A DNA stretch of 59,910 nt from Myxococcota bacterium (GTDB lineage: Bacteria; Myxococcota_A; SURF-8; G963663525). The translations under genes were made by a program, and so were the position numbers. Location: assembly GCA_963676915.2 (NCBI GenBank), contig CAXXVK010000029.1, forward strand, positions 1 to 59,910. The letters are read 5' to 3'. Of the stretch, positions 8,912 to 36,240 are shown piece by piece. Within the stretch, counting starts at the first letter, position 1. The number at the start of each line of letters is the position of its first letter. The notes beneath the pieces are model-generated. The model saw only the letters and a list, made by a program, of their open reading frames with translations, was not told the origin of the DNA and made no database searches.

Positions 8912-9298
8912 ATGAAAGAGGATTTGAAAGTCCTGATTGTGGATGATGAGCACGATCTTGTTTCCACGCTCGTGGAACGGCTGGAAATCCGGGGTGTCGA
9001 TGCGACGGGAGTCTGTTCCGGTACGCAGGCCATCGAACAGGTTGAGAACGATGATTTCGACGTGGTGGTGCTCGATGTGAAGCTCAAGGGGGAAGACGGC
9101 GTCGAGATCATGAAGCAGATCAAGGAGATAAAGCCGACCTTGCCGGTCCTTCTACTGACGGGGCACATGTCTCCCGAAACGAGTGAAGAAGGCTTTAAGG
9201 CCGGGGCGATCGACTACCTGCTCAAGCCGATCAACCTGAACGATCTGATGACGAAAATGCGCGAAGCGATGGCATTGTACAAGAAAAATCGAGACTGA
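8912..9298 (+). CDS. Single-domain response regulator (REC)
   Basis: VLIVDDE, VLDVKL, LTGH and KP motifs. Confidence 0.92.
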   Translation: MKEDLKVLIVDDEHDLVSTLVERLEIRGVDATGVCSGTQAIEQVENDDFDVVVLDVKLKGEDGVEIMKQIKEIKPTLPVLLLTGHMSPETSEEGFKAGAIDYLLKPINLNDLMTKMREAMALYKKNRD

Positions 9299-9981
9299 TG
9301 GACGACACGACAAACGCGAGTGAACGACGACGTTTGAACGATCTTTTCTTTTTCGGAAAGATCATGGCGAACGTTTCCCATGAATTCAACAACGTACTTA
9401 CCGTAATCACCGAACTTTCAGGACTGCTGGAGGATCTGTCTCTTCTTGCCGAACGGGGCAGGCCGATATCTCCCGAGAAATTGCAGATGATCACACGGAA
9501 ATTTTCTCAGCATCTGGCGCGTGGCAAGGAACTGATCACCAACATGAATCGTTTCTCGCACAGCGTGGATACTCCCCGTGCATCGCTGGACCTGAAAGAC
9601 GTGGTGAAAAACATGCAGGTGCTGATCCAGCGCCTGGTGGATCGTCGGCAGGCTACGTTGGAGTGTAGCTATTCCGAAAACGGAACGGACGTGACGACAG
9701 ACCCGTTTGCCGTTCGTCACGCACTTTTCGCTTGCTTTGAATGGATGATGAAGGCATCATCTCCGACACCCGCGTACAAGATCGAACTGATTTCGGGTGA
9801 GCGCGGGGCCGATATCGTGTTTTCCTGCCATTCCGAATTCGGTTCCGTCGAAAACGGACAAGAGTGGTCGGAGATGGTTGAAACGGTGGAAAGCTTTGGT
9901 GGAAGGGTCGAACTCGACCATCGCGACCAAGGTGTTTTTGTAAAAATCGCCGTCCCGAAAGATCCGGGCGAGGATGCCTGA
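9298..9981 (+). CDS. Histidine-kinase-like protein (HisKA with degenerate ATPase domain), possible phosphotransferase
   Basis: H-box GKIMANVSHEFNNVL present; no N/G1/G2 boxes recognisable; start overlaps the upstream stop. Confidence 0.75.
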   Translation: MDDTTNASERRRLNDLFFFGKIMANVSHEFNNVLTVITELSGLLEDLSLLAERGRPISPEKLQMITRKFSQHLARGKELITNMNRFSHSVDTPRASLDLKDVVKNMQVLIQRLVDRRQATLECSYSENGTDVTTDPFAVRHALFACFEWMMKASSPTPAYKIELISGERGADIVFSCHSEFGSVENGQEWSEMVETVESFGGRVELDHRDQGVFVKIAVPKDPGEDA

Positions 9982-10000
9982 TTAGGAAAGGATGATTGTT

Positions 10001-10432
10001 ATGGCCAGTGCGAAGGTTTTGCTTGTCGATGACGAAAATGACTTTACCGCTACGTTGTCCGAACGACTGGAATTGCGCGATCTCGAAGTATTTACCGCCG
10101 ACAACGGAGCCGATGCCATCAAACTTGCCGAAAACCACCGGTTCGATGCGGTGGTCCTGGATCTGCAAATGCCCGGAATGGATGGCATCGAGACGCTGAA
10201 ACGTTTGCTGTCCGGTGATGCCGATCAACAGGTTCTTATTCTGACGGGACACGGTTCCATCTCCAAAGGTGTCGAGGCCATGAAAGCCGGAGCCACGGAA
10301 TTTTTGGAAAAACCGGTGGATATCAAAGTGTTGACCGAGAAAATCGGTGAGGCTGCCGTCCAACGCATGATCATGATGGAAGAACGATCCGCCCAGGCTA
10401 TTGACGACATACTGAAGAAAAAAGGCTGGTAA
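10001..10432 (+). CDS. Single-domain response regulator (REC)
   Basis: VLLVDDE, VLDLQMPGMDG, LTGHG and KP motifs. Confidence 0.92.
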   Translation: MASAKVLLVDDENDFTATLSERLELRDLEVFTADNGADAIKLAENHRFDAVVLDLQMPGMDGIETLKRLLSGDADQQVLILTGHGSISKGVEAMKAGATEFLEKPVDIKVLTEKIGEAAVQRMIMMEERSAQAIDDILKKKGW

Positions 10433-15792: not shown

Positions 15793-15933
15793 TACAATTT
15801 CCTTTCAGTAGTACGACTGTGAGGCTTTTTTAGAATAAATAGACAAAGTCGAAATGACTGGGATGATACCACGAAACTATGGAATTATCCACTGAGGATA
15901 TTCAAGTTCACAACGGTGGAAAAATGTAGTAGG

Positions 15934-16581
15934 ATGAAAAACATGATGATCGACAGCAAAACGCCAATCGCAGAAATCCCTTTCGTAGCCTTTGATACAG
16001 AGACTTGTGGCTTGAACGAGGCCCGTGTCGTGGAACTGGCCGGAGTCCGGTTTCGTGGCGGTGCGGAAGAAGCCAGATTCCAAACCCTAGTGGACCCGAA
16101 GGAACCGATACCCGCTGAAGTAACAGCCATTCACGGAATTACCGACGAGATGGCGCGCGGAGCGCCGACAATACGCGAGGCGTTGATTTCGTTCCTGGAG
16201 TTTTCGAGGGGAGCTGTGTGGCTTGCCCACAATTCTCCGTTCGATGTGAAGATACTCACAGCTGAATTCTACCGGAGCGATCTGGCTATTCCGACATGGC
16301 CGGTACTATGTTCATGCCGTTTGTCAAGGAGGCTCAATGGTGGCTTGAAATCCCATAGCTTGGGCTCGGTCTGCCAGCATTTCGGTGTCCGACAGCAGGA
16401 CGCACATAGGGCTTTGGGAGACAGCCTGGACGTCATGGCCGTATTCACGCGGATGATGGCAAAACGCCCGGAAATAACGTTTGGCGAGTTATTGAAGATC
16501 CATAAAAAGCCGTACAGCTTTGACGATGCTATTGAAAAATCCCATACAATCCCCCACAAAGCACGATTAAATCGAATCTAA
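15934..16581 (+). CDS. DEDDh 3'-5' exonuclease (DNA Pol III epsilon-like)
   Basis: Exo I AFDTETCG, Exo II AHNSPFD, Exo III HRALGDS; IHGITDEM. Confidence 0.92.
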   Translation: MKNMMIDSKTPIAEIPFVAFDTETCGLNEARVVELAGVRFRGGAEEARFQTLVDPKEPIPAEVTAIHGITDEMARGAPTIREALISFLEFSRGAVWLAHNSPFDVKILTAEFYRSDLAIPTWPVLCSCRLSRRLNGGLKSHSLGSVCQHFGVRQQDAHRALGDSLDVMAVFTRMMAKRPEITFGELLKIHKKPYSFDDAIEKSHTIPHKARLNRI

Positions 16582-20117: not shown

Positions 20118-21173
20118 ATGACATGGCAGGCGGTATCGCTGGATCGGTCGGTGGTTCTGCCACTCTTCGCCTTCTATTTGTTGGTTGCGATAGAAGTGGC
20201 GTTCCTTGCTTGTTTTCTTAGGGTTTCAGTGGTTTTTTCGTGTCAGTTTTCCATCTGTCGTTCGCCATTATTACATAGGCCAACAATATCAATAACTTGG
20301 CGTTTATTTGCCAATGTGTGTCAACTGTGCGTCAAATATTCAGTGTATCTGCGTGTAATCCTTCAGTCTTTTGGGGAAGATTGGCAGAACAGCAATGCTT
20401 CGCCAAAGTTTGTATGTTCGACCGCCTTCAGGAGAATCATTGTCGAAATGGTAACTAGCAATTCCAGGTACAGCACTGAAACCGGAAATAATTCCTGTAA
20501 GGCTTGTCGGCAACCAACGTCCTGGAACAGCTGGACGATATTGTACAGCGGACAAAGCTGTAATGACGGTAACGCGTGTACTTATGATGATGGCTGCGCT
20601 GCAGGAGGAATTTGCTCCGGAGCGACGTATTCCTGCAACGACCATGGTACCTGCAATGGTGATGGAACCTGCACTTGCGATGAAGGATATGCAGGTGATC
20701 TATGTGATAGTTGCACTGATCTCTATATCAATTATCCTGACTGCGAGCCATTGATAACTTGGAAATACATTCAAGAAACAGGTAGTCCATGGCCAGGGTG
20801 TTTTGGCCAGGGATGTTCAACAGGAGATCCGTATTGCGATTCATCTATCCACATGCCTCGGTGGGCCAGTCGAATCAGCCTTGAAATTGCCAACGTAAAA
20901 GTCGAACACTTGCAGGATATCACCGAAGAAGATACGATAGCCGACCGACCCGGAAAACCGCATGTCAAGCCCGAAGAACAATATCTTATCCCTACGCGCT
21001 ACATCCTGCGTCGCGTTCGGGACGGCGACTTGACAGCGGAAGTCGGCTCGATGGACGAATATATGAGAATGCAGGCCATGGGCGGCATAAAATTTGGCAA
21101 CCCACCGGAAGTTTGCAAGATGAAACCGAAATGCGAAACGGTCAAGACCCTGCAAGAAATTAAGCGGGAATAA
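20118..21173 (+). pseudogene. Chimeric remnant: EGF/Cys-rich repeats, FGE-sulfatase start and a phage protein fragment
   Basis: CNDGNACTYDD..CNDHGTC..CTCDEGYAG; GCSTGDPYC; then SIHMPRWASRISLEIANVKVEHLQDITEED, a motif common in phage proteins; the 5' part of the ORF looks non-coding. Confidence 0.55.
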
Positions 21174-22791: not shown

Positions 22792-23076
22792 TTACACAAT
22801 AAATGCTGGTCCGTCGTCTATGGCTGGTCCACCTCCGTCTCCGATAATGGGAGGATTCAAGCTATGCTCCAGACGATAAATCTTGATAAATCCGCTTTCA
22901 ATACCCAGCTTTTCCAATGCCTCTATCATGCGTTTTTTCATGGGCCGGGTCAAGCGGCATTCGAACACGCTTTTCTGTACCCGAAAGCCGTATCCTTTCA
23001 GACATTTGTCTACCCATCGCCGTTCACGATTCGAGGAAATGTCGTAAATCACTACGTAATCCGATACGCCTTTCAT
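22792..23076 (-). CDS. cas2: CRISPR-associated endoribonuclease Cas2
   Basis: YVVIYDISSNRERRWVDKCLKGYGFRVQKSVFEC; ATGA overlap with the cas1 fusion stop. Confidence 0.96.
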   Translation of the reverse strand: MKGVSDYVVIYDISSNRERRWVDKCLKGYGFRVQKSVFECRLTRPMKKRMIEALEKLGIESGFIKIYRLEHSLNPPIIGDGGGPAIDDGPAFIV

Positions 23077-25715
23077 GATTTCCACCTGTAAAAACTCAAC
23101 GAACTTTCTCCTTTTACCCATCGACTTACGATAGCGACTTGCACCTGCAACAACTCCAGCCACGATAACTCGCCCGGGTTGCGTTTCCGGGTCAGCTCCG
23201 CTTCGTAGTGCTGAAGAAACAGTTTTCTACCTTCGTGAGTCAGGTACGCGCCGCGATCCGTCGTCTGAAAATGCTTCGACGTAATGATTTTCAGGTTCAA
23301 CAGCCGCAACAACAGACGATCCACCCGAGAACGAAACGGTTCTTGCAAGTCACAGACAAGCGACTCGTAATCGTCCGCCGGACTGTGTAAAAAACCCAGG
23401 TAAGGACTCAAACCGGCACAACGAACCAAGGCATTGAGACGCATGAACAGCAGGTAATAGCCGAAATTGAACAAACTGTTCAGGGGATCCGGCTTTTTTC
23501 GACGACGACCGGTAAAAGTAAAGGCGTCGTCTTTGATTTGCGCACCGATCTTGGCAAACACACGACGAGTAGTCTGCCCCTCGATGCCGCGAATTTCATT
23601 CACCGATCCGGCCTGAAGGATGCTTTTCGCCGCCCGTTCCAACTCGTGCAGCAAACTTGCAGTTCCAGGAGTATATCGTTGCTTGAAAACCGGCAGGTAA
23701 TTCAACAATTTAGCCTGGGCTACTTCAGCCGCCATCGCCAGGCGTTCGGTATCGCTCATACTATTGTAGCGTTCGGCGTGACGACCGACGGTCAAGTAGT
23801 ATTCTTTCGAGTCGGGTTTAACCGTTACGATGTTGTACCCTGATCCGAGGGACAGACTGACCGGAACCTTGCGCTCGACACATTCGGCCAGTAAAGCCGT
23901 GGAAATTACGCTTTTTTCCAGAACCATGATTTCGCTGATACGCCCAAGGGGAATGGTTTCCAGGATTTTTCGATAGCGGGTAACATCCACGGCGCTACCG
24001 TTTTTTGCCAGAAACACAGCCGGTTCGGTCACGTACAGCGGCTTTTTCAGTCGTTTGCCTTCCTGTTCGAAATCGGGAAGCGGCTCTCCTTTCCCCAACT
24101 CCAAGCCCAGGAAACGAAATCCCTCGTCGATGCGGTGAATCGCCGTTTTGGCAGGTTTGATCTTCAGTCGAATGGCATCAAGGCTTCGTTCTACGGTTTC
24201 ACGAGCGGCCTGCGCCTGTTCTTCCGTGCGAGTCAGCACGATGAAATCGTCGGCGTAGCGGATCATCCGGGCATCCAATCGTTGCAAATCCTCGTCGAAG
24301 GCATCAAGATACAGATTCGCCAACAAGGGAGATAACGGACTTCCCTGGGCAAGTCCGGCGTCTCGATCCTGCAGGCGATTTTTGAACACGTAGCCGTTTT
24401 GCAGACAGGTTTTCAGCACATCCAGCACCTTGTGATCGGCCACGGGAAACATATCGTCCAAAAGAGTGAAAAGCCGCGTCAAATCCACCGAGGGAAAGAA
24501 ATCATCGATATCCGATTCCAGCACGTAGCGGTAGCCATCGTCGAGGGCTTTGCGAACACGCGTCTCTACCTCATGACGTGATCTCCCCGGTCGATAGCCG
24601 ATCGCTTCGTCCTCCAGCATCTTTTCGATTACCGGAGCCAGCAAACGGCGCAACAACTGGTGGATTACCAAGTCCTCGGGGCCAAGGCGCTCCACCATAC
24701 GCTCTCCTCCGTTGGATTTCGGCACGGCGAACGCCTGGTTCGGTGAAGGCTGCCAGCTTCCATCGATGAGGGACTCGTGCAGCCTTTCGGTCAGGGTATC
24801 GGCGTCGAAGGGGGTTCCGCCGTCCACTGAGGCTTGCAGCAGGGCGCGGTCGTGGCGATGGATCACCTCTCCCACCGCCTTGCGTATCGCCGCCCGTTGG
24901 GGAAAACGCCGGGAGAAAAACGGGGAGTTGCGTTGCAGCCTGTAATGTCCCTGGGCATTGGCCAGTTTCGAGCCGCAGTGCAACTCGCTTCCCAGAATGA
25001 GCCATGGGAGGAAATCGGAAAACCGCCCCTTCAGATAGAGTGGTCCAGCACAGCCCTTGACATACTGGACCGTTCCCGGCTGGGATTTCGAGGACCGGCG
25101 ACGCTCGCTGTAATGCCAGAACCAGGGGAGCACCTCGAAGTCATCTTTGGAGCTTCGATAGGTGAAGTCGATGCCGAACAGTCTTGAAAAGCGGCGTTCG
25201 AAAGCTTGGACGAAGGTTTTGCGGGATAAAAACGTTCGAGGTTTTTCTTTGGGTCGATGGAACGAAAAAGGCGTGTCGAAACGAAGACATAGCTCATCAT
25301 CCTCCAGCCAGTCTCCGTTTTCTTCCATAAGCTTTTCCAGGCTGCGTTCTTCAGGAGCAGCACAATCTTCCAATGCGTAGGTGATGCAATGGGTAGGATC
25401 GGCCATATGCGCCCGGCAGGCCGCCGCCCAGCGCCAGGCGTCGGCCCGGTCAGCCCGACAGAGAAACACGTCCGCCTCAATGAGCGTGGGACGCTCGCGT
25501 GGTTCCCAACGAACGAGATGATGGAAAATGCGCGGATGTTCGTGCTCGGAGCCGTCCGGGTCGAGCCAGCCCAGGGAATCGGTTGTCCCTTTGACGATAG
25601 CCTCCACCGCCCCTGCGTGGGGAGAGCGAAGATTCGGCTTAAGTGGTCTGAATTCCACACGAATCCGCCACCAACGTAAAGCGGAGAAATCGGGTTGTGG
25701 TTTTCGTTTCGGCAT
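23073..25715 (-). CDS. cas1: Cas6-reverse transcriptase-Cas1 fusion
   Basis: N-term Cas6-like (LRFDTPFSF, KGCAGPLYL, G-loop LHCGSKLANAQGHY); RT (PKSNGGER, GYRPGRS, SDIDDFFPSV, GLAQGSPLSPLLANLYL, RYADDF, FRFLG); Cas1 (RGIEG, NSLFNFGY, LSPYLGFLH, SLVCDLQEPFR). Confidence 0.95.
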   Translation of the reverse strand: MPKRKPQPDFSALRWWRIRVEFRPLKPNLRSPHAGAVEAIVKGTTDSLGWLDPDGSEHEHPRIFHHLVRWEPRERPTLIEADVFLCRADRADAWRWAAACRAHMADPTHCITYALEDCAAPEERSLEKLMEENGDWLEDDELCLRFDTPFSFHRPKEKPRTFLSRKTFVQAFERRFSRLFGIDFTYRSSKDDFEVLPWFWHYSERRRSSKSQPGTVQYVKGCAGPLYLKGRFSDFLPWLILGSELHCGSKLANAQGHYRLQRNSPFFSRRFPQRAAIRKAVGEVIHRHDRALLQASVDGGTPFDADTLTERLHESLIDGSWQPSPNQAFAVPKSNGGERMVERLGPEDLVIHQLLRRLLAPVIEKMLEDEAIGYRPGRSRHEVETRVRKALDDGYRYVLESDIDDFFPSVDLTRLFTLLDDMFPVADHKVLDVLKTCLQNGYVFKNRLQDRDAGLAQGSPLSPLLANLYLDAFDEDLQRLDARMIRYADDFIVLTRTEEQAQAARETVERSLDAIRLKIKPAKTAIHRIDEGFRFLGLELGKGEPLPDFEQEGKRLKKPLYVTEPAVFLAKNGSAVDVTRYRKILETIPLGRISEIMVLEKSVISTALLAECVERKVPVSLSLGSGYNIVTVKPDSKEYYLTVGRHAERYNSMSDTERLAMAAEVAQAKLLNYLPVFKQRYTPGTASLLHELERAAKSILQAGSVNEIRGIEGQTTRRVFAKIGAQIKDDAFTFTGRRRKKPDPLNSLFNFGYYLLFMRLNALVRCAGLSPYLGFLHSPADDYESLVCDLQEPFRSRVDRLLLRLLNLKIITSKHFQTTDRGAYLTHEGRKLFLQHYEAELTRKRNPGELSWLELLQVQVAIVSRWVKGESSLSFYRWKS

Positions 25716-25737
25716 TGTTTTTCTTTCTATTCAAAGA

Positions 25738-26609
25738 CCCCCTGCAGAGGGATGTCCTGTCTGGACTCACAATTATTACCCCATTTTGGAGGAATTAAGT
25801 TTCCGGCCCCCTGCAGAGGGATGTCCTGTCTGGACTCACAATTATTACCCCATTTTGGAGGAATTAAGTTTCCGGCCCCCTGCAGAGGGATGTCCTGTCT
25901 GGACTCACAATTATTACCCCATTTTGGAGGAATTAAGTTTCCGGCCCCCTGCAGAGGGATGTCCTGTCTGGACCGATTGCCGAGAGTCGGAGGAATATCC
26001 CGATAATGTTTCCGGCCCCCTGCAGAGGGATGTCCTGTCTGGACCAATGGTGCGTAATTTGGGTGAAGCCCAAAGTTTCCGGCCCCCTGCAGAGGGATGT
26101 CCTGTCTGGACACAGGTAGTTACGAGAGCTTAGCAGAGTTGACAATGAACGTTTCCGGCCCCCTGCAGAGGGATGTCCTGTCTGGACCTTGCTTGAAAGT
26201 GGGGAGGAGATTGGAAAAGTTTCCGGCCCCCTGCAGAGGGATGTCCTGTCTGGACTCAAAGTTACACTCACACAAGTGAATATACTATGTTTCCGGCCCC
26301 CTGCAGAGGGATGTCCTGTCTGGACAAACACAGAACCAACGAGAAACTGCCAAGGAGCGTTTCCGGCCCCCTGCAGAGGGATGTCCTGTCTGGACAGCAC
26401 GGTCTGGATATACACGCTCGCCTTACGGGTGTTTCCGGCCCCCTGCAGAGGGATGTCCTATCTGGACAAAATACGACGATGCGAAAAAAAATCTTGAAAT
26501 CTGTTTCCGGCCCTCTGCAGAGGGATGTCCTATCTGGACACATTCGGAATATAAAAAACTCAGCCCTAAATTGTTTCCGGCCCTCTGCAGAGGGATGTCC
26601 TATCTGGAC
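25738..26609 (-). CRISPR. CRISPR array 2: 13 repeats (trailer degenerate), 12 spacers of 30-39 nt, trailer spacer present three times
   Basis: Same 37-bp repeat as array 1; spacer TCACAATTATTACCCCATTTTGGAGGAATTAA at 25767, 25836 and 25905. Confidence 0.98.
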
Positions 26610-26715
26610 TCTAGCCTCTGTAATATCTTGATTTCAAAGAACTTTCAAGCCTAAAATTCGGAACCTCCCTGTTAGGCGGACCTAAACCACCCCTTTTCCG
26701 GGGAGGTTCCGAATG
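26610..26715 (-). promoter_or_regulatory. CRISPR leader 2 (near-identical copy of leader 1)
   Basis: 102/106 identical to 22684-22789; IHF-consensus site at 26621-26633. Confidence 0.85.
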
Positions 26716-26741
26716 GATTGCTAAAAAAAGCGGTTTCATAT

Positions 26742-27764
26742 TTATAATTTTTCCGTTAAATCCTGCTCTTGCCAAAGTATTTGCAACAAAATCCCCAAAG
26801 CACTACCAAATAAAGGGAATTGGATCAACAAAGATACATTAGATGCAATTTCCAACCATGGAGCCTGATTGAGGACATATCTCATGACCTCATGGCCTAC
26901 AAGCAGATAAAACACCTCGGATAGCAAAATCCCTTGAAGAATAAATAAAGTAACAACCACACTGCCACGCTGAAATAGCAATTTCGGATATTTGTAAGTT
27001 TTTTTTCCAACTCGTAAAAACACGAAAAAAATAATGCAGACCAAAGGAAATAGGATCCCCCAAAATAAAGGCAAAGCGGATACCATTAGCCAACCCTCCG
27101 CTACACCCATTAAAGCAAAAAGACCGATCGACGTCGCCGCCATCATACGTGGCATTAAAAAATTCCAATAGTTTAACATTTTTCTCTTAAACGAAAGACT
27201 TCTATAAATGCGTCGAGCTGAAACAAAATCATAACGTTTTAAAAACCATTCGATACCAAATTCTGCCAATTCGGCATGAGTAATAAAAAACGACCTAAGA
27301 CCGCCTTTGCCATCATCTTCGAAAAATACGGATCGTGCTTCCTTTTCTATGGCTGGACATGTATTATCATCGTTGCTTAATAAGCGAGAAAACAACAAGT
27401 CGTATCTACTTTTTTCCCTTTGTACAAAATGATTAAGCCAATTGACAACGTAGGCAAAAGCATTGCTTTTATGCTCTTCTGGCATGGAATCATTCCATTT
27501 AATCAATGCCAGTCGAGCCTGAACCTTGTCTAATACAAAGTCATAATGTGGTACTGAACGAACTGAATCAGACAAATTATCCAGTGTTTCCTGCAACAAT
27601 AAATAATCGTCGTAACCTATTTTTTTTATCCGTTCGTCATTCGAATTCCTGCAAAATTCTAGCAGTCTCTCTTTGCGATTCTCACCGGGAAATTTTAATT
27701 TTTCAGCCGCCTGGTCCAACTCATCAAAAATCAACGATGAAGCGTTCATTCTGTTGTTTGTCAT
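26742..27764 (-). CDS. CRISPR-associated membrane protein (soluble N-terminal domain plus about 4 TM helices), candidate effector
   Basis: Last gene of the cmr operon, ATGA-coupled to the CARF gene; about 200 hydrophilic residues followed by four hydrophobic stretches; family not recognised. Confidence 0.7.
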   Translation of the reverse strand: MTNNRMNASSLIFDELDQAAEKLKFPGENRKERLLEFCRNSNDERIKKIGYDDYLLLQETLDNLSDSVRSVPHYDFVLDKVQARLALIKWNDSMPEEHKSNAFAYVVNWLNHFVQREKSRYDLLFSRLLSNDDNTCPAIEKEARSVFFEDDGKGGLRSFFITHAELAEFGIEWFLKRYDFVSARRIYRSLSFKRKMLNYWNFLMPRMMAATSIGLFALMGVAEGWLMVSALPLFWGILFPLVCIIFFVFLRVGKKTYKYPKLLFQRGSVVVTLFILQGILLSEVFYLLVGHEVMRYVLNQAPWLEIASNVSLLIQFPLFGSALGILLQILWQEQDLTEKL

Positions 27765-28552
27765 GATAAGTCACTAACTTTCCGAGCCCTTGAGGTCAGA
27801 TGACTCTTTTTTGCTTCCCCAGAAGTCGTCTGGATCATTCGTTCAGACGTCGACAGAGGTTTGCAAAGCATAGTGGAATCTTCAAAAAGGTAGTAGGTCT
27901 CTCGATACCAATCAGGTTTCGTAATATCTTTCAACAGATAGTGCACAAAATGTAGCAATGTTCCTTTGTACCCACCGGTTAAATTGAAATACACTTGCGG
28001 ATCTGAAGCTTTTGCAAGCTTTTCTTCGAGAAGACTCGTCATTTTCCATAGCGCGTTATCGAAACCAATTGGATTGCAAGGATCCAATCCTTGTACTTCC
28101 AACCATTGTGATTGTATAAGTTTCGGTAAGAAGTATTGTTTTTGGTCATCAGGTAACAGGAGTTGATTCAAGATACCTTCGTTCATCGTTGCCGAGAGTC
28201 TACCCTCCTCGTCATCTCCATGGATAAAAAGCAATTCATAATTTGCAATTGTTTCATCCGGCTGGAAAATTTCTTGATCAATATAAAACAGGGACGCCAA
28301 TTCCGCACTCAAGTCCTGTCGTGGACCATACTGCCATGTGTCGACATCAAATTGATCTTGCACGCTGTCAGTATTTTTCATCAGCTTTTTTACCACTTGG
28401 TCCCGGACGGTTTCTACCTCCATCAGATTTTCCAATGAGTAGTCAGTGCGATTCAAACCAATTTTTTTTCTGTATTCTGAAACCGCTTTCCAACACGTAG
28501 CAGATCGCAAGATACTTGTGCCGCATGGAGCAACTAAAAATGTTGTTTTCAT
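27761..28552 (-). CDS. Standalone CARF protein, APE2256/SSO1393 (Crn1-like) family, probable ring nuclease
   Basis: VAPCGTSIL, SAELASL, VQGL and FNLTGGYKG motifs, YYLFED; no C-terminal HEPN RxxxxH domain. Confidence 0.8.
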   Translation of the reverse strand: MKTTFLVAPCGTSILRSATCWKAVSEYRKKIGLNRTDYSLENLMEVETVRDQVVKKLMKNTDSVQDQFDVDTWQYGPRQDLSAELASLFYIDQEIFQPDETIANYELLFIHGDDEEGRLSATMNEGILNQLLLPDDQKQYFLPKLIQSQWLEVQGLDPCNPIGFDNALWKMTSLLEEKLAKASDPQVYFNLTGGYKGTLLHFVHYLLKDITKPDWYRETYYLFEDSTMLCKPLSTSERMIQTTSGEAKKSHLTSRARKVSDLS

Positions 28553-28566
28553 GACCGTTTCTCCGT

Positions 28567-29451
28567 TTAAGTGCTCGCTGTAGATCTGAAATATCCATAA
28601 CCCGAACTGCTTTTACCACCTACGCCATAGTTCATCAGGGCCTTTTCCAGGATGCCTTTGGCGTTAGTCAACAAGGTTCTTTGACGCTCCACAGGTACCC
28701 AGTCAGATGTTCGAAGCCCGAATACAAAGGGAACTCCTTTGCAGACCGTCAAAAAGGGCACAGGATTAGGCTCATCCGATTCTTTAGGCGACTGACCGCC
28801 ATTACTGCTGTAATATTTCATATGGTGATTGGTAAGAACATCGACGGTCAATAGTTTACGACTAATGTCCTTGGGCCAAGCATCGAGAAATATTACGCTC
28901 CCTTCGGAGCCTTGCTTGCGATTGCCTTTCGCATCGATAAAAGGCGGAAAGCCAAAAATCTCTTTCCATGAGGCTTTGTCAGCATATTCTGGATGGTCCG
29001 CCCCCCAATGCGCTGCTAGACCTTTCAGCGAGGCACCGAGAAGAACCGGAAAACCGTAGAGAGGATGTAGGGTCAAGTGGGTTTCAATTACAGAAGACTC
29101 ACCCATACCCGTAACAAGCCGGCAAGCGGTTTCCAAAGAAAAAACGTACGCATCTTTATAATAACGTCTGAGTCTAACAGAATGTAACTTTCTTTGGTTA
29201 TATGCACTTTGGTTTCCTGTAAACTCAACCTGTTCAATCCCCATTTGTTTGGCACTTTTCGCAACTGGCCTTCCAAGAACTTCATCGGTAAATACAAGAT
29301 ATTTGTCCATTAAAAGGCCAGGATTTGCGTAGTTAGCTATCTGACGTAACAATTTCAGTTCCAACGACACAATTTTGCCATTATGATGTCCTACGGTATG
29401 AGGCAAATCTTCCACCCCTTGGCAACCATACAGCACATTACTAATCTCCAT
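28567..29451 (-). CDS. cmr6: Type III-B RAMP Cmr6
   Basis: RLVTGMGESSVIETHLTLHPLYGFPVLLGASLKG, FLDAWP, VDVLTNHHMKYY, PNPVPFLTV, GVGGKSSSGYG. Confidence 0.95.
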   Translation of the reverse strand: MEISNVLYGCQGVEDLPHTVGHHNGKIVSLELKLLRQIANYANPGLLMDKYLVFTDEVLGRPVAKSAKQMGIEQVEFTGNQSAYNQRKLHSVRLRRYYKDAYVFSLETACRLVTGMGESSVIETHLTLHPLYGFPVLLGASLKGLAAHWGADHPEYADKASWKEIFGFPPFIDAKGNRKQGSEGSVIFLDAWPKDISRKLLTVDVLTNHHMKYYSSNGGQSPKESDEPNPVPFLTVCKGVPFVFGLRTSDWVPVERQRTLLTNAKGILEKALMNYGVGGKSSSGYGYFRSTAST

Positions 29452-30007
29452 AGGCTTGTCCTTTCACTGTCTGACCATTCTCACCTGCTTGACCGTCGGT
29501 CTTTTTAAACGTAGCTTCAGAAAACAACTTTAACCAAGTCAACAGCTTCTGGCATTGCATGGTTGCATGCATCAGAAATATAGGATCACTATCAAGAATC
29601 GCGTTCATCATACTTTTTACGGATTGTGAGGAATCTTTATCCAAAACGCCACAATCCATTTCCCCGCGATTTACGCAACAATCCAGATAATGTAGAATCT
29701 GAGTTGCCACCAATTCACGGGACTCTTTCTTGGCCATCATGAAAGCCAGCGCCTGAGCCAATCCGGCGCGATGAATCAGCAGGGGTGCTTCACGCACAGA
29801 TGCGAAATAACTTTCTCCCATCTCACCAATCACTTTTGCTTTCCGACTGTCCGTGACTTCTTTATCTAACCATTTGATAGTGAAATTTCTCTTAGAACTT
29901 TTTAAAATCAATGTTCTTCCACTGATATCCGCCCCTGAAATCTGCTGAACAAGACCTAAAGCACATCGTGCCCTTAAATGATCTGCCGATTGAATGCTCA
30001 CACTCAT
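29441..30007 (-). CDS. cmr5: Type III-B small subunit Cmr5
   Basis: HLRARCAL..Y..VREAPLLIHRAGLAQALAFMMAK..WLKLFSEA; lies between cmr4 and cmr6. Confidence 0.88.
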   Translation of the reverse strand: MSVSIQSADHLRARCALGLVQQISGADISGRTLILKSSKRNFTIKWLDKEVTDSRKAKVIGEMGESYFASVREAPLLIHRAGLAQALAFMMAKKESRELVATQILHYLDCCVNRGEMDCGVLDKDSSQSVKSMMNAILDSDPIFLMHATMQCQKLLTWLKLFSEATFKKTDGQAGENGQTVKGQAYGD

Positions 30008-30969
30008 GACTGCACCTCGTATTTCTTGTTTTGTGATATTGCGTCACCGTGCAGTGCGAAAGTGACAATCCCTTTCCCTGTTGTTTCATCACCACCGACC
30101 TGCAGTCGCTCATCGGTGATAATTTCTTTGAAGGCATCGAATACATCATTGGCAGAGGCATAAGGATCTTTTTTAAAGGGGCATCGTGCCTGGAAAGGAA
30201 TGAACATGAGACTTTCTTGTGGAAGGTATTCGCTGTATCTCAGGCTGCCCTCTTCCGTCACACCATTTTTGCCTATGCGGATATTAGCCTGGATCTCCGT
30301 CCCAAACCGGGTAAAGTAGGTAAACATTGTATCGCTGACCACAACAAGACGATCGGTGAAGTCTTTCAACATGGAATCATCATCTGAATAGACAACATTA
30401 CCGATCAGATCTCCGAACTCTTTGAATGCTGGATTTTCGGACTTATAAGCCTTCAATGGATACTCTTCTAAAAAGACTTTACCCTTATAGGCAAGTAGAT
30501 TTTCACTAGCTGAAGTGACCAACACATGATCCTGATGTGTTGCTAGATCCCTCGTGATCTTCATGAGGGGGTCGATCATATCAATCGGGTGGGTATATTG
30601 CTTGGCGAACTGTTGCAAGCGTCTGAGAACCATGGGACAGGTAAGCAACGCGTACCCACCTACTAAAGACCTAATGGGCATAGTAAAGAGATAGGCATCC
30701 ACAAAATCAAGAAACCCGATATTTTTATCCCCCGTATTATCCATAGTCCCAAAAAGGATATTGAGTTTGTGTTCACATTGTGTGCTTGTCTCCCATTTAG
30801 TCTTGCAGTGTGCCCGAAAAACGCCTTTAAGACTACTGGACTGGACAAAGGGCAACCCGGTATGACGTTCCCGAATGATCGGACGATCGATGTAATCTAC
30901 AGTTTCACCCGCACCGTTATGCAGGGGAGTAATGCAACTCATCCAAAGCATTCCACTTTTTGCCAGCAT
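30004..30969 (-). CDS. cmr4: Type III-B RAMP Cmr4 (target RNA cleavage backbone)
   Basis: TPLHNGAG..IDRPIIRERHTGLPFVQSSSLKG, PIRSL, LRYSEYLP, QVGGDETTGKG. Confidence 0.96.
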   Translation of the reverse strand: MLAKSGMLWMSCITPLHNGAGETVDYIDRPIIRERHTGLPFVQSSSLKGVFRAHCKTKWETSTQCEHKLNILFGTMDNTGDKNIGFLDFVDAYLFTMPIRSLVGGYALLTCPMVLRRLQQFAKQYTHPIDMIDPLMKITRDLATHQDHVLVTSASENLLAYKGKVFLEEYPLKAYKSENPAFKEFGDLIGNVVYSDDDSMLKDFTDRLVVVSDTMFTYFTRFGTEIQANIRIGKNGVTEEGSLRYSEYLPQESLMFIPFQARCPFKKDPYASANDVFDAFKEIITDERLQVGGDETTGKGIVTFALHGDAISQNKKYEVQS

Positions 30970-30971
30970 AG

Positions 30972-32126
30972 TTAACTCCTTTGTTGTTCCCAGGAACCTA
31001 TCAGCGTTTGGCCGAAACCGGCACGTTGAAGTCCCGAACTACCATCAGAAACGGATTTGTTTAAAAGGTAGCAATCAACCAGATCATCAACGATCTGGTT
31101 GTCATCGATTTCGTAGAAATAAACAGACCCAGCCGGTGCAAGTCTGCGCAAAGCCTTAGCTCTACCTTTGGCATAATCCCAACCAGCCATATGGGTAGAC
31201 TTCTGAAGAGCGGCTCCTATTGGATAAAGTCCGAACATTTTATCCGGCGATGGAAACCATCCCTTGTCGAAGATTGACGGCGTGGCCAAGTAAATGAAAA
31301 ATCGACCCGAATCGTTTATGCTTTTCTTTATCTTCTTCGCAACATCACTTGAAAGCCCTGACCATGCTTCATGTTGAATCGACACCATGTGGTGCTTCCC
31401 ACCGATTGGGAAGTTTTTATAATGCGCAACAGTGGATAAATCCATACCTGTAACCATGGCCGCATAGGAGGAATCATCTGACTTAAAGCGTCTTGTGTTG
31501 ACTTGGTAGAGGCGTTCATCTTTCACAGTATGACTCTGTTCTTCGCGTTCGTGCCCATACCTAGGTTCGGAAATCCAGATCTCCGATTCGGGCAACACGC
31601 TTAAAGAACAAAGCCCAGGGGACATGTTTAGGCAAAGTTCAAGCAATTTATTGAGTGAAATCCAACTTTTCTCTGCTTTCACCTCATCACGTTTTTCGTC
31701 GGTCAGGATAGGACGTATGTTGGTGGTGCCTAAGTCGTTAAGTATGGAGTTCTCACCAGGAACGCCCAAAGTATAGGTGCCATCTTCGTTTTGAAACAGA
31801 TTGGTGGGCGCCTGAAAATATAGCCGATTAGACAAATATAAAAATGGCCCTTTTATACTCAACGTCCCTTTAACGGGTTCAGGCGTCGCTTCACCTATGA
31901 TGTCAACAAGTGGTGCGACTGTGTCGCTTAATTTTTCAGATCTGCTTTGCTTGACATAATCCGATGGCTCGACACCCGATGAGTGAAGAATCAGGCTGCG
32001 AATCGCTCCGAAAAATACTGAAGGCAACGGATAGATTCCGTCCAATATACTGCCGAGTTCGGCAGATCTAAGGTCTCTGAAAAATAGGACATCATTGGGA
32101 TGAAAAGTCATTAATTCGATTGTCAT
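30972..32126 (-). CDS. cmr3: Type III-B Cmr3
   Basis: PNDVLFFRD, PLPSVFFGAIRS, KGPFL, PIGGKHH, YLATPSIF, GWDY, PAGSVYFY, GFG. Confidence 0.95.
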   Translation of the reverse strand: MTIELMTFHPNDVLFFRDLRSAELGSILDGIYPLPSVFFGAIRSLILHSSGVEPSDYVKQSRSEKLSDTVAPLVDIIGEATPEPVKGTLSIKGPFLYLSNRLYFQAPTNLFQNEDGTYTLGVPGENSILNDLGTTNIRPILTDEKRDEVKAEKSWISLNKLLELCLNMSPGLCSLSVLPESEIWISEPRYGHEREEQSHTVKDERLYQVNTRRFKSDDSSYAAMVTGMDLSTVAHYKNFPIGGKHHMVSIQHEAWSGLSSDVAKKIKKSINDSGRFFIYLATPSIFDKGWFPSPDKMFGLYPIGAALQKSTHMAGWDYAKGRAKALRRLAPAGSVYFYEIDDNQIVDDLVDCYLLNKSVSDGSSGLQRAGFGQTLIGSWEQQRS

Positions 32127-33883
32127 CGGTCACCTGCCTCTCTGGCAATGACGGCTAATCCATGAAGAGCGTGAAGAACATTATCCAATGCCGTGCGATC
32201 CCCCGGTGGATGATATTTTGCTAATTGTACCAAGCCGTCATGAATGGCTTGTTTGGCTTCCTCTTCAGCATTCGAATCAAGGCATTGCCTCTGTATAAGG
32301 ACCGATAATACCGCACTGAACATTTCTGGTTCCAAGCGACCTTTATTCGAACAAATCAAGGCAAGTTCAGATAACCTGTAGAGAAAACGTGATGAAAGCA
32401 TAGGACTAGAACCACTAATGGCCGAGAGGATTTTTTTGCAGATATCAGTCCACTCATGGCTGTTAGTGGTGTTCCATGAGTGTCCGAAGGTGCTACTTCC
32501 TCCTGATGACTGAAGAACCGTAGTCACCAACGCATTGCGTTTGAACGTCTTTTTCGCATGGTTGGCACTTTCATAAGCAACCGAAACAGCGAGTCTAAGC
32601 GGTTGGTGAATAGGCAGAAAAACAAGAGCACCAGAAATTGTGGGGCTTTGATTCTTGGCATTGCTACAGAACTCTAACTTTTCGGCAAATGTTTTTTTCA
32701 GCTTACTGACGGCCGAGAAAACGTGCTCAGCAGGCAATAAAGCGAACAGATCATCCCCACCGGCATAAACAAGTTGGCCACCGTTCTCTGTAATAATTGT
32801 ATCAAATGCTTTAGCGATGATCGAAAGGCTTTGGCTAAATGTTTTACAATAGTCAACATAGGAGTTGTTTTTGTCGGCATACCCATCACCACCAATCCAC
32901 TTCCCGATATGATCGCCATCGAAAATCACCAAGCAATAATATTTTGATGGTGAACAGGGAAAAGCTTTTAAAAACCCTTTTTGAGCCATCAATAAAGCAT
33001 TGTAAGATTGCTTCTTACTCTCGACTATTTTTCCATCCGTGGTCAGGAGGGGCGAAATGATGTCTTCCAGACCAGACTCGTAAAACAGCGAACAGTGTTT
33101 TTTCTCCAAATCCAACCACGAGTCAGGCAGATTTACAACGGCAAGTTCGCGCTCGATCGTTTTTTTAAATTCTTTCCAATGTTTTTCAATTGAGGATTTT
33201 TCATCATCTGATGCTGTTTTAATCTCTTCCCTGAAATGAAATGAAGCCAATTCGGCGGCTGTTTTAATTGAATTTCCAAGCTTTAACATCCTCTTGCCGG
33301 TACAAACCGAACACAAACGCTCACGCTTTCTAAAACGCACATCAGATTTAAATAAGTGCTGCCAGTTAAGATCGGCAACTGGCCGCAAGCCGCATTGAGT
33401 GCATTTTTCCCCTGCTAAATGACCTGGAATTGACGAAAACTCTCTGGTCCTTTTCCTGGCTTCAAAGAGTCTGTCCAGATTTTGGATATCTTCTTGTCTT
33501 AGAGAATCATTTTCACTTAATTGCTGAGCCACCCAGCGAATAGTAAACAGGTCGTCAAACCAAAAATCATCCCCATCACGATATTGAAACGCGGAACTCA
33601 AGGATGTCTTCCATGACCTCCTTGCTGCTTCTTCCACTTGATGCACAATAGTACTTAGCTGTTCTTGCAAAAGATTAAGTATGCCCACGAAATAATTGGG
33701 ATGATGCTGATTGTCATTTGCAGGATAGAGAATATCTCCCGAATGCTTCATAAATTCCAGGCGTGCAGCATAAATAGCATTGACTAACATAGAAGAAGCC
33801 GAGCAGAGGTCCCTTGTACGTCCAGCTTGTACGATAAATTCTTGAACGGGGGAGATGGAAAGTTTTATTAGAAATCGTGCCAT
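32123..33883 (-). CDS. cmr2: Cas10/Cmr2 without HD domain, intact Palm cyclase motif
   Basis: SISPVQEFIVQAGRTRDLCSAS at the N-terminus (no HD domain), Zn finger CTQCG..CSVC, DGDHIGKWI, YAGGDDLFA. Confidence 0.96.
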   Translation of the reverse strand: MARFLIKLSISPVQEFIVQAGRTRDLCSASSMLVNAIYAARLEFMKHSGDILYPANDNQHHPNYFVGILNLLQEQLSTIVHQVEEAARRSWKTSLSSAFQYRDGDDFWFDDLFTIRWVAQQLSENDSLRQEDIQNLDRLFEARKRTREFSSIPGHLAGEKCTQCGLRPVADLNWQHLFKSDVRFRKRERLCSVCTGKRMLKLGNSIKTAAELASFHFREEIKTASDDEKSSIEKHWKEFKKTIERELAVVNLPDSWLDLEKKHCSLFYESGLEDIISPLLTTDGKIVESKKQSYNALLMAQKGFLKAFPCSPSKYYCLVIFDGDHIGKWIGGDGYADKNNSYVDYCKTFSQSLSIIAKAFDTIITENGGQLVYAGGDDLFALLPAEHVFSAVSKLKKTFAEKLEFCSNAKNQSPTISGALVFLPIHQPLRLAVSVAYESANHAKKTFKRNALVTTVLQSSGGSSTFGHSWNTTNSHEWTDICKKILSAISGSSPMLSSRFLYRLSELALICSNKGRLEPEMFSAVLSVLIQRQCLDSNAEEEAKQAIHDGLVQLAKYHPPGDRTALDNVLHALHGLAVIAREAGDR

Positions 33884-34875
33884 ACTAAATCCTCTTTTGA
33901 TAATGGTTCAAAGCCAAGATCTTTTAATAACATGCCTACAAGAGGAAGCCTTAAAGGATCAAGTGGCGAGGAAGTAATTAATTTTTTATTGACAATTGGT
34001 GGAGACCAGATGGCCACTGGCACAACCATATTATTGTTTACTGGAGTTAATCGAATCGCAAGCGGTGAAGCAAGGCGTTTTCTCTCATCACCGAGTAGAT
34101 TTCGAAATACATCGTAATTCTTATTTTTCAAGAATGAGCATTTCGACATAATCACTTCAATAGCCCCTCGAGAATTAGATATATTGGGTCTATTCAATTC
34201 ACGGCCTACAAAAACATGCTTTGGTGATGCCACATGAAAAATGCTTGATGCACGAGGTTTTGCAGTGTGAGACTTATTGCCAAGAAAGACTGAGATTAGC
34301 CTCTGAGATTGCAACAAGCTAGATTTGAGCTGAATTAATAGTTGATCACGAGTAATATTTTCTTCACATACAGGAAAGTCATCAAATTCTTGTTTCTCTG
34401 TAGTCTGGAGGTTTGTTATCGCAATCGAACCAGCTCCACGACGTCCCCGCCTGCCGAGAGAGCCAAAATTACCCCACATCCAGATGCTTGCAATAAAAGC
34501 ATTAAGCCATTCTCTAGTTGGTACATCCAAAATTTGAAATTCAATTTTAGCATTTAGTCCAGCTGGATAAGCCTTTAAAGGAAACTTTCGTTTAGGAACA
34601 ACTCGCGTATCTGTCGCCACCCATGAATCTTCGTCAATTAGCTTAATACGCATCCGAAAAGTCATCTTTTCTGTGCTACCAAAAAGCTTTTCTTCTTCTA
34701 TAAATAATGGCTCGCTTTCAAAATCCAACAAAGGAGTTGCTATTGCACGAAACCAATGCCGCAATTGTCCTCGAACTGAGGAACCACGAATTCCATCAGG
34801 ATCGGTTTTATTGGCTCCACCAATAAAAAGCGGGCTGACAAATTTAAAGTTGCAAGTGAGAATTTGCTGAACCAT
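33868..34875 (-). CDS. cmr1: Type III-B RAMP Cmr1
   Basis: FVSPLFIGGA..IRGSSVRGQLRHWFRA, EEKLFGST, FGSLGRRGRRGAGS, RLASPL; RBS GGAGAG before ATG 34875. Confidence 0.94.
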   Translation of the reverse strand: MVQQILTCNFKFVSPLFIGGANKTDPDGIRGSSVRGQLRHWFRAIATPLLDFESEPLFIEEEKLFGSTEKMTFRMRIKLIDEDSWVATDTRVVPKRKFPLKAYPAGLNAKIEFQILDVPTREWLNAFIASIWMWGNFGSLGRRGRRGAGSIAITNLQTTEKQEFDDFPVCEENITRDQLLIQLKSSLLQSQRLISVFLGNKSHTAKPRASSIFHVASPKHVFVGRELNRPNISNSRGAIEVIMSKCSFLKNKNYDVFRNLLGDERKRLASPLAIRLTPVNNNMVVPVAIWSPPIVNKKLITSSPLDPLRLPLVGMLLKDLGFEPLSKEDLVWHDF

Positions 34876-35151
34876 ATCAATCTCTCCAGCAATTGTTATT
34901 TTCGTGATTTCAATACTCTTATAAAAAACATACCAATACAAATCAAATAAATAAATCCAGAAATATCCAATTATTCCAAAAATTAACCCAGCGCGAGACA
35001 TTATAAATCGTTAATAGCAAAAACCATATAGATTAATTGATATTCTGCTAAATCATAAAAAAGAATTATAGATACACTTGCCAATTTCCCTTCAAGCGCC
35101 TTTTGTAGTATAAAAAGAAATCGAATCAATCAGATTTTGGAGCTTGTGCCC

Positions 35152-36240
35152 ATGACCCGCTTTTCTCAATATTTTCGACCCTTTGCCACCCTGACCCCGA
35201 TCATCCTTACCATCTTTCTCCTCCTGCCAATCCTCCTCCTCCCCACCGGTTGCGAGGATGACGGCGTAACCTTCAGCCCGTTGACCGACATTGATGTAGA
35301 GACCGAAACTGACGCCCCTGGGGATTATGACCAAGCCGACGTTACCGACATCCCGGAAGATTCTGATTCCACTGATTCGGACAACGACACCGACAGCTTA
35401 GACCAAACCGACATCGAAGGTACTGATTCCGACAACGAAGGTGCCGATTCCGACCGCATCGAGGTCGACCCGAACGACCCCTGCGGTCGTGAGATTTTCA
35501 ATCATCCGAATCCCTGTACCGAGCTAAACAAAACCGTCTGCATTCCCGATGGAGAAACCTATACCTGTCGCTGCGAGCCGGGCTATGTCGAAAATTCCTC
35601 GGGGAATTGTAGCCTGACCAATCCCTGCGAAATCGACCAAACTTGCTATGATGATCACCATCTCTGTCTGATTCAGGGTGGTGAGGCCACCTGTGGGGAT
35701 TGCTTGTACGGCTACCACGAGGAAAATGACGAATGCGTGCCCGACGTACATCCGGATGGGAACCCGATCTGGTCCGATGCCGGTACCGGGCTGGATTGGC
35801 AGGCCGTCCCCCCGGAAAGTGAAATGACCTGGGATTGGGCGGTCAACTATTGCGACGGATTGGATCTGGGAGGTTTTACCGACTGGCGCTTGCCGAATAT
35901 CACCGAGTTGCGCACGTTGTTGCGGGATTGCTGGACGGTTTCGGCCTATAGCGATGCCTGCCCTGTCCACGATGTGTGTTCCCACTGCGGGCCGTTCCCC
36001 TTCGATGCTTGTTTGGAGGTGGAGTGCAAAATTATGGAATTTTGTGGAAAATGCAGAAATGGAAGTGCATTTCCCGAGGATTTACCAGGAGCAGATGATG
36101 GCTATTGGTGGTCGTCCTCGGAAACCTCTTGGGGAGGAAACAATACAAGTGCATGGGAATTGAATTATCAAGGAACAATCGGGCATAATAATAAACTATC
36201 TTCTAGCACAAAAATTCGTTGTGTCCGTGGCCCCAACTAA
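35152..36240 (+). CDS. Lipoprotein with acidic linker, EGF-like Cys repeats and DUF1566 (Lcl-type C-lectin fold) domain
   Basis: Lipobox PTGC; DAGTGLDWQ, MTWDWAVNYC, GGFTDWRLPNITELRTL, YWWSSS, AW, IRCVR. Confidence 0.85.
   Translation: MTRFSQYFRPFATLTPIILTIFLLLPILLLPTGCEDDGVTFSPLTDIDVETETDAPGDYDQADVTDIPEDSDSTDSDNDTDSLDQTDIEGTDSDNEGADSDRIEVDPNDPCGREIFNHPNPCTELNKTVCIPDGETYTCRCEPGYVENSSGNCSLTNPCEIDQTCYDDHHLCLIQGGEATCGDCLYGYHEENDECVPDVHPDGNPIWSDAGTGLDWQAVPPESEMTWDWAVNYCDGLDLGGFTDWRLPNITELRTLLRDCWTVSAYSDACPVHDVCSHCGPFPFDACLEVECKIMEFCGKCRNGSAFPEDLPGADDGYWWSSSETSWGGNNTSAWELNYQGTIGHNNKLSSSTKIRCVRGPN

Follow-up and report, generated by a model that had tools for sequence, protein, structure and literature searches.

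How does a type III-B CRISPR system turn target recognition into an output when its Cas10 has no HD domain and its operon encodes no effector of a known family? The question is raised by a locus from a Myxococcota bacterium (assembly GCA_963676915.2), lying in a stretch of 59,910 nucleotides at positions 1 to 59,910 of contig CAXXVK010000029.1, referred to here as the window, where the last two genes of a cmr operon encode a stand-alone CARF protein of the CARF7 (APE2256) type and a 340-residue protein with four transmembrane (TM) helices, the TM protein. An initial annotation had offered two alternatives, that the TM protein is a new membrane effector gated by cyclic oligoadenylate (cOA), or that the CARF protein is the sensor subunit of a two-part effector, and comparative evidence favours the second. 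We put at about even the chance that CARF7 and the TM protein form a split sensor for cyclic tetra-adenylate (cA4) plus membrane output of an HD-less, signalling-only III-B system. Four observations favour this reading: a soluble receiver always precedes the TM protein, that receiver varies with the signalling system, the TM protein, its soluble part included, shows no CRISPR-specific conservation, and no cOA receptor other than CARF7 is recognisable in the assembly.

A type III-B operon with one recognisable receptor

Each of the six Cmr proteins, Cmr1, Cas10 (Cmr2) and Cmr3 to Cmr6, matches its own family in Pfam, NCBIfam and PADLOC (Table 1). The sequence of Cas10 opens directly with Cmr2_N, no HD domain being found ahead of it among the matches to these three libraries, and GGDD is kept at residue 375, so that the initial annotation described this protein correctly. 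It was also right that the operon has no recognisable effector gene, as none of the eight operon proteins matches a known effector family in the same libraries, CorA included (no match at E ≤ 0.1 for any of them), and in placing at the operon end a CARF gene coupled to the TM gene through ATGA, the overlap of the CARF stop codon with the TM-gene start.

Beyond the operon, a six-frame search of the whole assembly, which is 90.8% complete, returned one match each for the Cas10 palm2 and APE2256 families and none for Csx1_HEPN or Card1. SAVED gave no match in the same search, a weak negative in that 14 control genomes gave none either, and NucC and CorA were not among the families searched genome-wide. 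Within the families searched, no cOA receptor besides CARF7 can be recognised in the assembly. On the opposite strand, at 15916-16581, some 10 kb off and outside the operon, there is a gene for an RNase_T exonuclease.

CARF7 as the candidate sensor

The window CARF protein scores above the 24.8-bit cut-off of Pfam Cas_APE2256, and the PADLOC CARF7 and CARF_RelE models both cover its CARF part alone, the latter matching only at model positions 3-142 of 294, which leaves out the RelE domain that marks Cami1. No hydrophobic segment was found in it. Its AlphaFold2 model (pLDDT 72) is Rossmann-like, with a helical insert at about residues 40-95 and a predicted disordered tail at 233-263, and as modelled there is no room for a RelE, HEPN or winged helix-turn-helix (wHTH) domain. 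The best Foldseek matches of the model are Sis0811 (E 3.6e-7), Sso1393 and Cami1. A profile search of the PDB with the CARF alignment put the 406-residue APE2256 chains 8phb and 8phj on top (E ~2e-16), followed by 7pq2 and 3qyf, chains which the Foldseek titles name as Cami1, Sis0811 and Sso1393; the window CARF searched as a single sequence against the PDB gave no match. From their PDB titles, we take Sis0811 and Sso1393 to be cA4 proteins.

The protein carries G11-T12-S13 as motif I and G194-Y195-K196 as motif II. Across ten of ten CARF partners of TM-protein relatives, the invariant elements are G-T-S (11-13), AExxSL (83-88), GGxK (193-196) and LxE (222-224), in window numbering, and the G-T-S and G-x-K elements are the counterparts of motifs I and II described for Crn1/Sso2081 (G9-T10-S11 and G104-R105-K106; PMC10018336). 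Crn1/Sso2081 and Cami1 are themselves described as cA4 proteins (PMC10018336, PMC11229360). The window protein thus resembles Crn1, Sis0811, Sso1393 and the CARF part of Cami1 in Pfam family, in both motifs and in fold, and differs from Sso2081 in being longer (263 vs ~180 residues), with its helical insert and disordered tail, and from the ring nucleases and Cami1 in having no wHTH or RelE domain. By these signatures it is best regarded as a CARF7 domain standing alone, expected to bind cA4 and perhaps able to cleave it, as a ring nuclease would. It is also the most divergent of the partners, with 21-27% identity to the others and the lowest PF09651 score among full-length partners, tied with those of loci L006 and L013.

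A membrane protein family with a conserved core

The TM protein consists of a helical N-terminal part (about residues 1-200), a juxtamembrane WFLKRYD helix, four hydrophobic stretches within residues ~204-331 and, last, a conserved C-terminal tail. The distribution of basic residues, on either side of TM1 and throughout the TM2-TM3 loop, predicts a cytoplasmic location for both the N-terminal part and this tail. Its AlphaFold2 model, built from a 15-row alignment, is all-helical (pLDDT 79, pTM 0.78), with the first 70 residues at low confidence and residues 1-100 ranging from pLDDT 46 to 82 by blocks of ten.

Searches with the window protein returned little. Pfam, NCBIfam and PADLOC held no match at E ≤ 0.01, and Foldseek of the whole model against the PDB found none at E ≤ 1e-3. 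A wide VIA-align search with the whole model gave at best Z 6.5 over 57 residues at a root-mean-square deviation of 2.2 to generic helical repeats, below the level that is meaningful for helical proteins, and in the ESM Atlas the best feature scores were 0.76-0.78 to unnamed clusters, too low to count. A word-index homologue search retrieved only the protein itself from a single sequence and two proteins from alignment A4, both weak negatives, and a tblastn search of plasmids with relative P0003 gave no match. DUF2391/TIGR02587 did not match the window protein; one relative carries the NCBI label 'TIGR02587 family membrane protein', and two of the 15 alignment members scanned show a 55-residue partial match to DUF2391 (3.7e-5, profile positions 6-60 of 275).

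An exhaustive phmmer search of 1.84 billion representatives retrieved 14 relatives at E ≤ 1e-3 (242-444 residues, E 3e-22 to 2e-4). They have in common the juxtamembrane WFLKRYD helix, a PR motif that opens TM1, W225, a Y-x3-E that closes TM2, and a C-terminal motif, IQVFWEEKTITEPL, that stops exactly at the C-terminus. Seven residues are invariant in alignments A1, A3 and A4 and all are kept in the window protein: R177, P205, R206, G214, W225, Q328 and W331. Since relatives share both conserved motifs and conserved gene order, the open reading frame (ORF) is, as judged from sequence, a real gene and belongs to a real family.

This layout leaves space for a different explanation, in which the TM protein senses the messenger through its own N-terminal soluble part, as Csx23 does, and CARF7 is a dedicated ring nuclease. 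Sensors other than CARF do exist, as described for Csx23 and CorA, together with the REC domain proposed as one for Cam2 (PMC11229360), and a soluble part of ~200 residues with no fold match has room for a new binding fold. Residues 1-100 are, against this, poorly conserved as well as low in model confidence, and the residues that are conserved further along are shared with proteins outside CRISPR loci, as set out below; on balance we hold self-sensing to be quite unlikely.

Pairing with CARF7 across type III loci

The genomic contexts of the family come from 18 loci, retrieved by pattern from genomes taken one per species and from Joint Genome Institute metagenomes, and from L045 and L046, retrieved by profile from 401 Nitrospirota genomes. 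L017 is a duplicate of L006 and L019 of L007, the genes of L014 and L013 are the same, and L005, L008, L010, L016 and L018 are cut off upstream and lie outside the pairing count. The loci counted are therefore the window, L002, L003, L004, L006, L007, L009, L011, L012, L013 (=L014), L015, L045 and L046, and in all 13 of these distinct loci with upstream sequence a Cas_APE2256 CARF gene lies directly upstream of the TM gene. The CARF proteins have 227-287 residues, that of L007 being a 158-residue piece cut at the contig end, and the spacing to the TM gene ranges from a 4-nt overlap to 102 nt.

The TM genes sit in III-B operons (the window, L011, L012 and L013) and III-D operons (L002, L003, L004, L009, L015, L045 and L046, the call for the last two resting on gene-length synteny and on RAMP, CARF7 and Cas6 matches), and nine of nine Cas10 proteins, one of them partial and L045 and L046 left out, are HD-less with GGDD. 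Several paired loci also have a reverse transcriptase (RT)-Cas1 gene. By record titles, the hosts are Dehalococcoidia/Chloroflexi, Nitrospirota/Thermodesulfovibrionales and a metagenome-assembled genome (MAG) of the archaeon Geoglobus, the window belonging to another phylum. Identity matrices of the CARF and TM proteins correlate at r = 0.85 (Mantel p ~2e-4, 10 pairs), a correlation which shows joint travel, as expected of co-inherited neighbours, and is no proof of contact.

The pairing bears directly on an explanation that we consider rather unlikely, in which CARF7 is only a Crn1-like ring nuclease, the TM protein anchors or scaffolds CARF7 or the Cmr complex, and immunity comes from RNA cleavage by Cmr4 or from an effector elsewhere. 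Ring nucleases are described as co-occurring with several effector families, with no fixed neighbour (PMC12409355), where here the neighbour is the same in every counted locus; a ring nuclease with nothing to switch off is implausible where Cas10 is HD-less; L005 holds a separate Csx3-type gene besides its TM gene; and the REC-PAS and CARF1 partners of the relatives described below are left unexplained. Such an anchor would nevertheless suit the invariance of the ring-nuclease motifs in the partner CARFs and the presence of the ring nucleases Sis0811 and Sso1393 among the closest solved structures. It also agrees with the Shmakov 2018 preprint (10.1101/270033), which proposed a role in anchoring the machinery for uncharacterised type III membrane proteins, and with Hoikkala 2025 (PMC12409355), where 31 loci are reported to have a ring nuclease but none of the known effectors, and an effector acting in trans may have escaped an assembly of the completeness given above.

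Two of these loci show further arrangements around the TM gene. At 8054-8739 of L011, a III-B locus, a pair of HEPN and MNT-type nucleotidyltransferase genes lies directly downstream of it. In L005 (contig C56 of genome G404), the last ~20 codons of the TM gene (…IFIQVFWEEKTITEPL plus stop) are repeated twice 3' of the intact gene, at 3237-3311 and 5036-5110, with 62 of 75 and 57 of 75 nt identical and a partly similar flank; the Csx3 gene, a NYN gene and nucleotidyltransferase genes sit between the copies, and a third fragment of the TM-gene 3' end lies at 13693-13785 of contig C48 of the same genome. The pattern suggests that cassettes were inserted repeatedly, or that recombination took place, where the TM gene ends.

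Relatives with other partners

Relatives of the TM protein are also found with soluble partners other than CARF7. One such relative, of 455 residues, belongs to L047, a type III-A locus with csm2-5, and its gene lies directly downstream of that for a 342-residue CARF1-family protein, which matches only the CARF part of CARF-HEPN models and is too short for a HEPN domain. Read by eye, this relative is a 6-TM protein, with two extra hydrophobic helices before the PR motif, and L015 and P0015 have a long hydrophobic insertion before that motif as well, the distinction between four and six TM helices resting on sequence reading and on the alignment insertion. The same locus encodes at 9289-10260 a 323-residue protein made of an adenylate/guanylate cyclase domain and a C-terminal Csx3 (ring-nuclease-like) domain, adjoined by genes for a CARF_m1 protein and a PIN_4 protein.

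The initial annotation had named homologues lying mostly outside CRISPR loci as an outcome that would count against its proposal. The close, full-length homologues all lie in type III loci, and a larger set of distant paralogues lies outside them. Within the window's phylum, 57 of 401 sampled genomes gave profile matches (56 of 400 without the window's own); G000 apart, the 49 strongest match only profile positions ~138-324, mostly in frames of ~550-750 residues, and seven further genomes have shorter or weaker matches. An hhalign comparison joins these long paralogues to the CRISPR-linked family with 99.7% probability (E 5e-26, A4 columns 89-331) and places a two-helix insertion before their PR motif. 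No cas family was found among 22 neighbours scanned around the long paralogues, and no cas gene among five neighbours scanned around L048, a weaker Nitrospirota relative. Directly upstream of the long-paralogue gene, abutting or overlapping it, is a gene for a REC-PAS response regulator in four of the four loci scanned (L032-L035), L031 having been scanned for downstream genes only and L030 (G127) dropped from the context count.

What the two branches share is informative as to where a messenger could bind. The CRISPR-linked family has 43 columns conserved at ≥75%, and at 28 of them the non-CRISPR paralogues have the same residue; the shared columns include W109, E140, the WFLxRY helix, the C-terminal tail and all invariant residues except R177. 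The TM protein would thus appear to have no CRISPR-specific ligand-binding signature, its conserved features being those of the membrane device itself and not of a cOA pocket, and the CARF protein is the likelier cOA sensor because most conserved TM residues are present in the non-CRISPR paralogues too. The same sharing speaks against the self-sensing TM protein considered above, as the paralogues that keep W109, E140 and the helix have no cOA to sense. We had considered the C-terminal tail (WEEKTITEPL) as a docking peptide for CARF and rejected it, the tail being equally conserved in the non-CRISPR paralogues.

A wider idea, that the TM protein is a portable membrane output module gated in trans by interchangeable soluble receivers, we regard as tentative and short of even. 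Were it correct, the window pair would be the first cOA sensor and membrane effector divided between two polypeptides, and a common output device would join CRISPR second-messenger signalling to phosphorelay signalling. The REC-PAS-paired paralogues suggest that such a module is older and more general than CRISPR signalling, and they provide an independent handle on its working.

The loci L031-L035 contain a recurrent cluster of genes for a GCS2 glutamate-cysteine ligase (in three of three loci scanned for it, L032, L034 and L035), the REC-PAS protein, the membrane paralogue of 555-575 residues, a thioredoxin-reductase-like protein (four of four, L031 and L033-L035, fused to glutaredoxin in L031) and a PAS-HisKA-REC protein (four of four). 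From its gene content, the cluster suggests a redox-linked signalling device.

Nearest known systems

The published description closest to this arrangement is that of Cam3, which according to Hoikkala 2024 (PMC11229360) occurs in 12 type III-B loci of complete genomes, directly downstream of a CARF7-type 'Cami1'. Cam3 is described there as a helix-rich, little-conserved N-terminal soluble domain followed by a helical TM bundle, with no informative structural matches, and its function as 'enigmatic', possibly that of a Cami1 accessory. The window TM gene has the same place, downstream of a CARF7-type gene in a III-B operon, and likewise encodes a helical soluble part followed by TM helices, whereas Cam3 has six TM helices and a Cami1 (CARF-RelE) partner, where the window protein has four and a partner without RelE. 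A pipeline could label a bare CARF7 as Cami1, because bare CARF7 proteins score best against CARF_RelE models. The description of Cam3, compared as a description alone, fits the TM family closely, and the two are possibly the same; against identity, the pattern scan of species representatives gave only MAGs, where the Cam3 loci are in complete genomes. A full-text literature search yielded no further paper mentioning Cam3, and the available text of PMC12409355 does not describe a CARF7-membrane protein pair.

A second catalogued family is the PADLOC model Mem_01 (PDLC01155), a 'membrane protein (6TM) with a globular domain at N-terminus'. It is matched weakly by relatives of the TM protein, at 1.5e-7 in L047 and, by six-frame search, at 1.8e-7 in G403, 3.8e-7 in G667 and 2.4e-6 in G405, in type III context and within model positions ~291-432 of 440, the C-terminal third. 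The window TM protein itself does not match Mem_01, its counterpart in L002 (G401) reaches only 0.065, and the window's subfamily differs in having no first TM hairpin. An uncharacterised type III membrane protein of this description is mentioned in the Fig. 3C legend of the Shmakov 2018 preprint (10.1101/270033), and we infer that it is Mem_01. The initial annotation had called the TM protein unrecognised, which holds for the window protein, as it matches no library, and is too strong for its relatives, given their weak matches to Mem_01 and the published descriptions of Cam3-like proteins. The TM family belongs to, or adjoins, a catalogued uncharacterised family (Mem_01, possibly Cam3), and what is new here is the obligate pairing with effector-less CARFs, the swapping of sensor partners and the large REC-PAS-paired sister family outside CRISPR.

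Four type III ancillary membrane proteins are held, in the sources as available, to depolarise the membrane on binding cA4: Cam1 (PMC10808066, PMC11229360), Cap1 (10.1101/2025.11.13.688252), Chp1 (10.64898/2026.08.05.743128) and Csx23 (PMC11014256, PMC11229360). By these descriptions each has its sensor and TM helices in one polypeptide, whereas in the window the only recognisable sensor is on a separate protein; the TM protein itself has no CARF match in Pfam, NCBIfam or PADLOC, and so is not a fusion of the Cam1, Cap1 or Chp1 type. Family libraries and structure searches showed no likeness of sequence or fold between it and any of the four. In Csx23 the TM helices are N-terminal and the soluble cA4-binding domain is C-terminal, an order that is reversed in the window protein, where the soluble part comes first.

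A proposed split sensor and membrane output

In the split arrangement that we favour, binding of target RNA by the Cmr complex would switch on the palm domain of Cas10, whose GGDD motif is in place, and the messenger then made would probably be cA4, since the nearest solved CARF relatives are described as cA4 proteins. Binding of this messenger would fall to a CARF7 dimer, effector-less but with both motifs present, and the liganded CARF would gate or release, in trans, the TM protein, whose gene overlaps its own on the downstream side. On the model of Cam1, Csx23, Cap1 and Chp1, the TM protein might then disturb the membrane, by ion leak or depolarisation, and bring about growth arrest, while the same CARF motifs may slowly cleave cA4 and so reset the module.

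Several points weigh against this proposal. The contact that it supposes between CARF and TM protein is extrapolated from sequence, and pore formation by the TM protein from analogy. No fusion of CARF to the TM protein was found among the phmmer relatives, or in a word-index search with residues 150-319 of P0003 (a weak negative). Both ring-nuclease motifs are intact, and the CARF protein could be a mere Crn1-like off-switch. All of the evidence is comparative, most contexts are taken from MAGs and metagenome contigs, and loci that are related do not count as independent. Finally, no member of the TM family diverges more than the window protein, which has 18-31% identity to the others and has lost several near-invariant residues, Y-x3-E being replaced at F247 and R251, K334 by Q and P339 by K, and which may work differently or be decaying. 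A prediction of the 1:1 CARF-TM complex (alignments A2 and A3) scored 0.00 in two runs for which controls were not run, and speaks neither for nor against binding.

The last of these points can be taken further, to a window copy that is a decaying or repurposed remnant, inherited with its locus and giving no cOA-dependent output here. The outlying TM protein fits such a remnant, as does a CARF protein that is itself the most divergent of the partners and shares their lowest family score. Both ORFs are nonetheless intact and translationally coupled, the invariant residues of the TM protein and both CARF motifs are kept, and the cmr operon is complete and accompanied by an array and an adaptation module; decay seems to us very unlikely.

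Cam1, Csx23, Cap1, Chp1 and CorA each carry their own sensor, by the descriptions available. Should the split reading be true, cOA signalling would be wired in a new way, with sensing and membrane output assigned to two proteins in obligate partnership. 'Stand-alone CARF7' genes, now filed as ring nucleases or Cami1, would gain a function, and some of the published loci that have a ring nuclease yet lack an effector would be accounted for. Mem_01 and Cam3-type proteins, catalogued since 2018 without a mechanism, would likewise acquire a function open to testing.

The locus and its surroundings

The features of the locus are collected in Table 1. The guanine-plus-cytosine (GC) content of 26001-36000, which covers the cmr-CARF-TM block, is 0.42-0.46 as compared with 0.50-0.56 across most of the window, which is consistent with horizontal acquisition of the block.

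Table 1. Coordinates of the type III-B locus in the window and the evidence for each feature
Feature	Position	Strand	Evidence
cmr1	33868..35001	-	377 aa; TIGR01894 Cmr1 5.9e-11, PADLOC Cmr1 4.5e-19
cas10/cmr2	32123..33883	-	586 aa; Cmr2_N and Cas10-Cmr2_palm2 (Pfam); TIGR02577 5.4e-38
cmr3	30972..32126	-	Cas_Cmr3 3.4e-42
cmr4	30004..30969	-	TIGR02580 4e-55
cmr5	29441..30007	-	Cas_Cmr5 6.5e-13
cmr6	28567..29451	-	TIGR01898 3.7e-37
Stand-alone CARF7/APE2256 protein	27761..28552	-	263 aa; PF09651 32.9 bits
Membrane (TM) protein gene	26742..27764	-	340 aa; no library match; 14 relatives
CRISPR array	25728..26618	.	13 repeats, spacing ~69-76 nt (repeat search, family D1)
Cas6-RT-Cas1 fusion	23073..25715	-	880 aa; Cas_Cas1 1.3e-59, RVT_1 1e-28, CRISPR_Cas6 6.9e-5
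cas2	ORF 22792..23163	-	PF09827 match at 22867-23058, 54.1 bits

Within the array, three successive repeat-spacer units at 25738-25973 are 100% identical, so that one spacer is present three times, and at the other end (26429-26618) the repeats carry point changes. Beyond cmr1, on the same strand (-), the segment 36295-38567 contains ORFs matching the phage tail families Tail_P2_I and Mu Gp48 and a 594-residue ORF with no family match, and may be a prophage or tailocin region adjoining the CRISPR locus. Cysteine-rich proteins are encoded on both sides of the locus, at 20118-21173 (+) and 35137-36240 (+), one of them with EGF-like matches and the other with an Lcl C-terminal domain.

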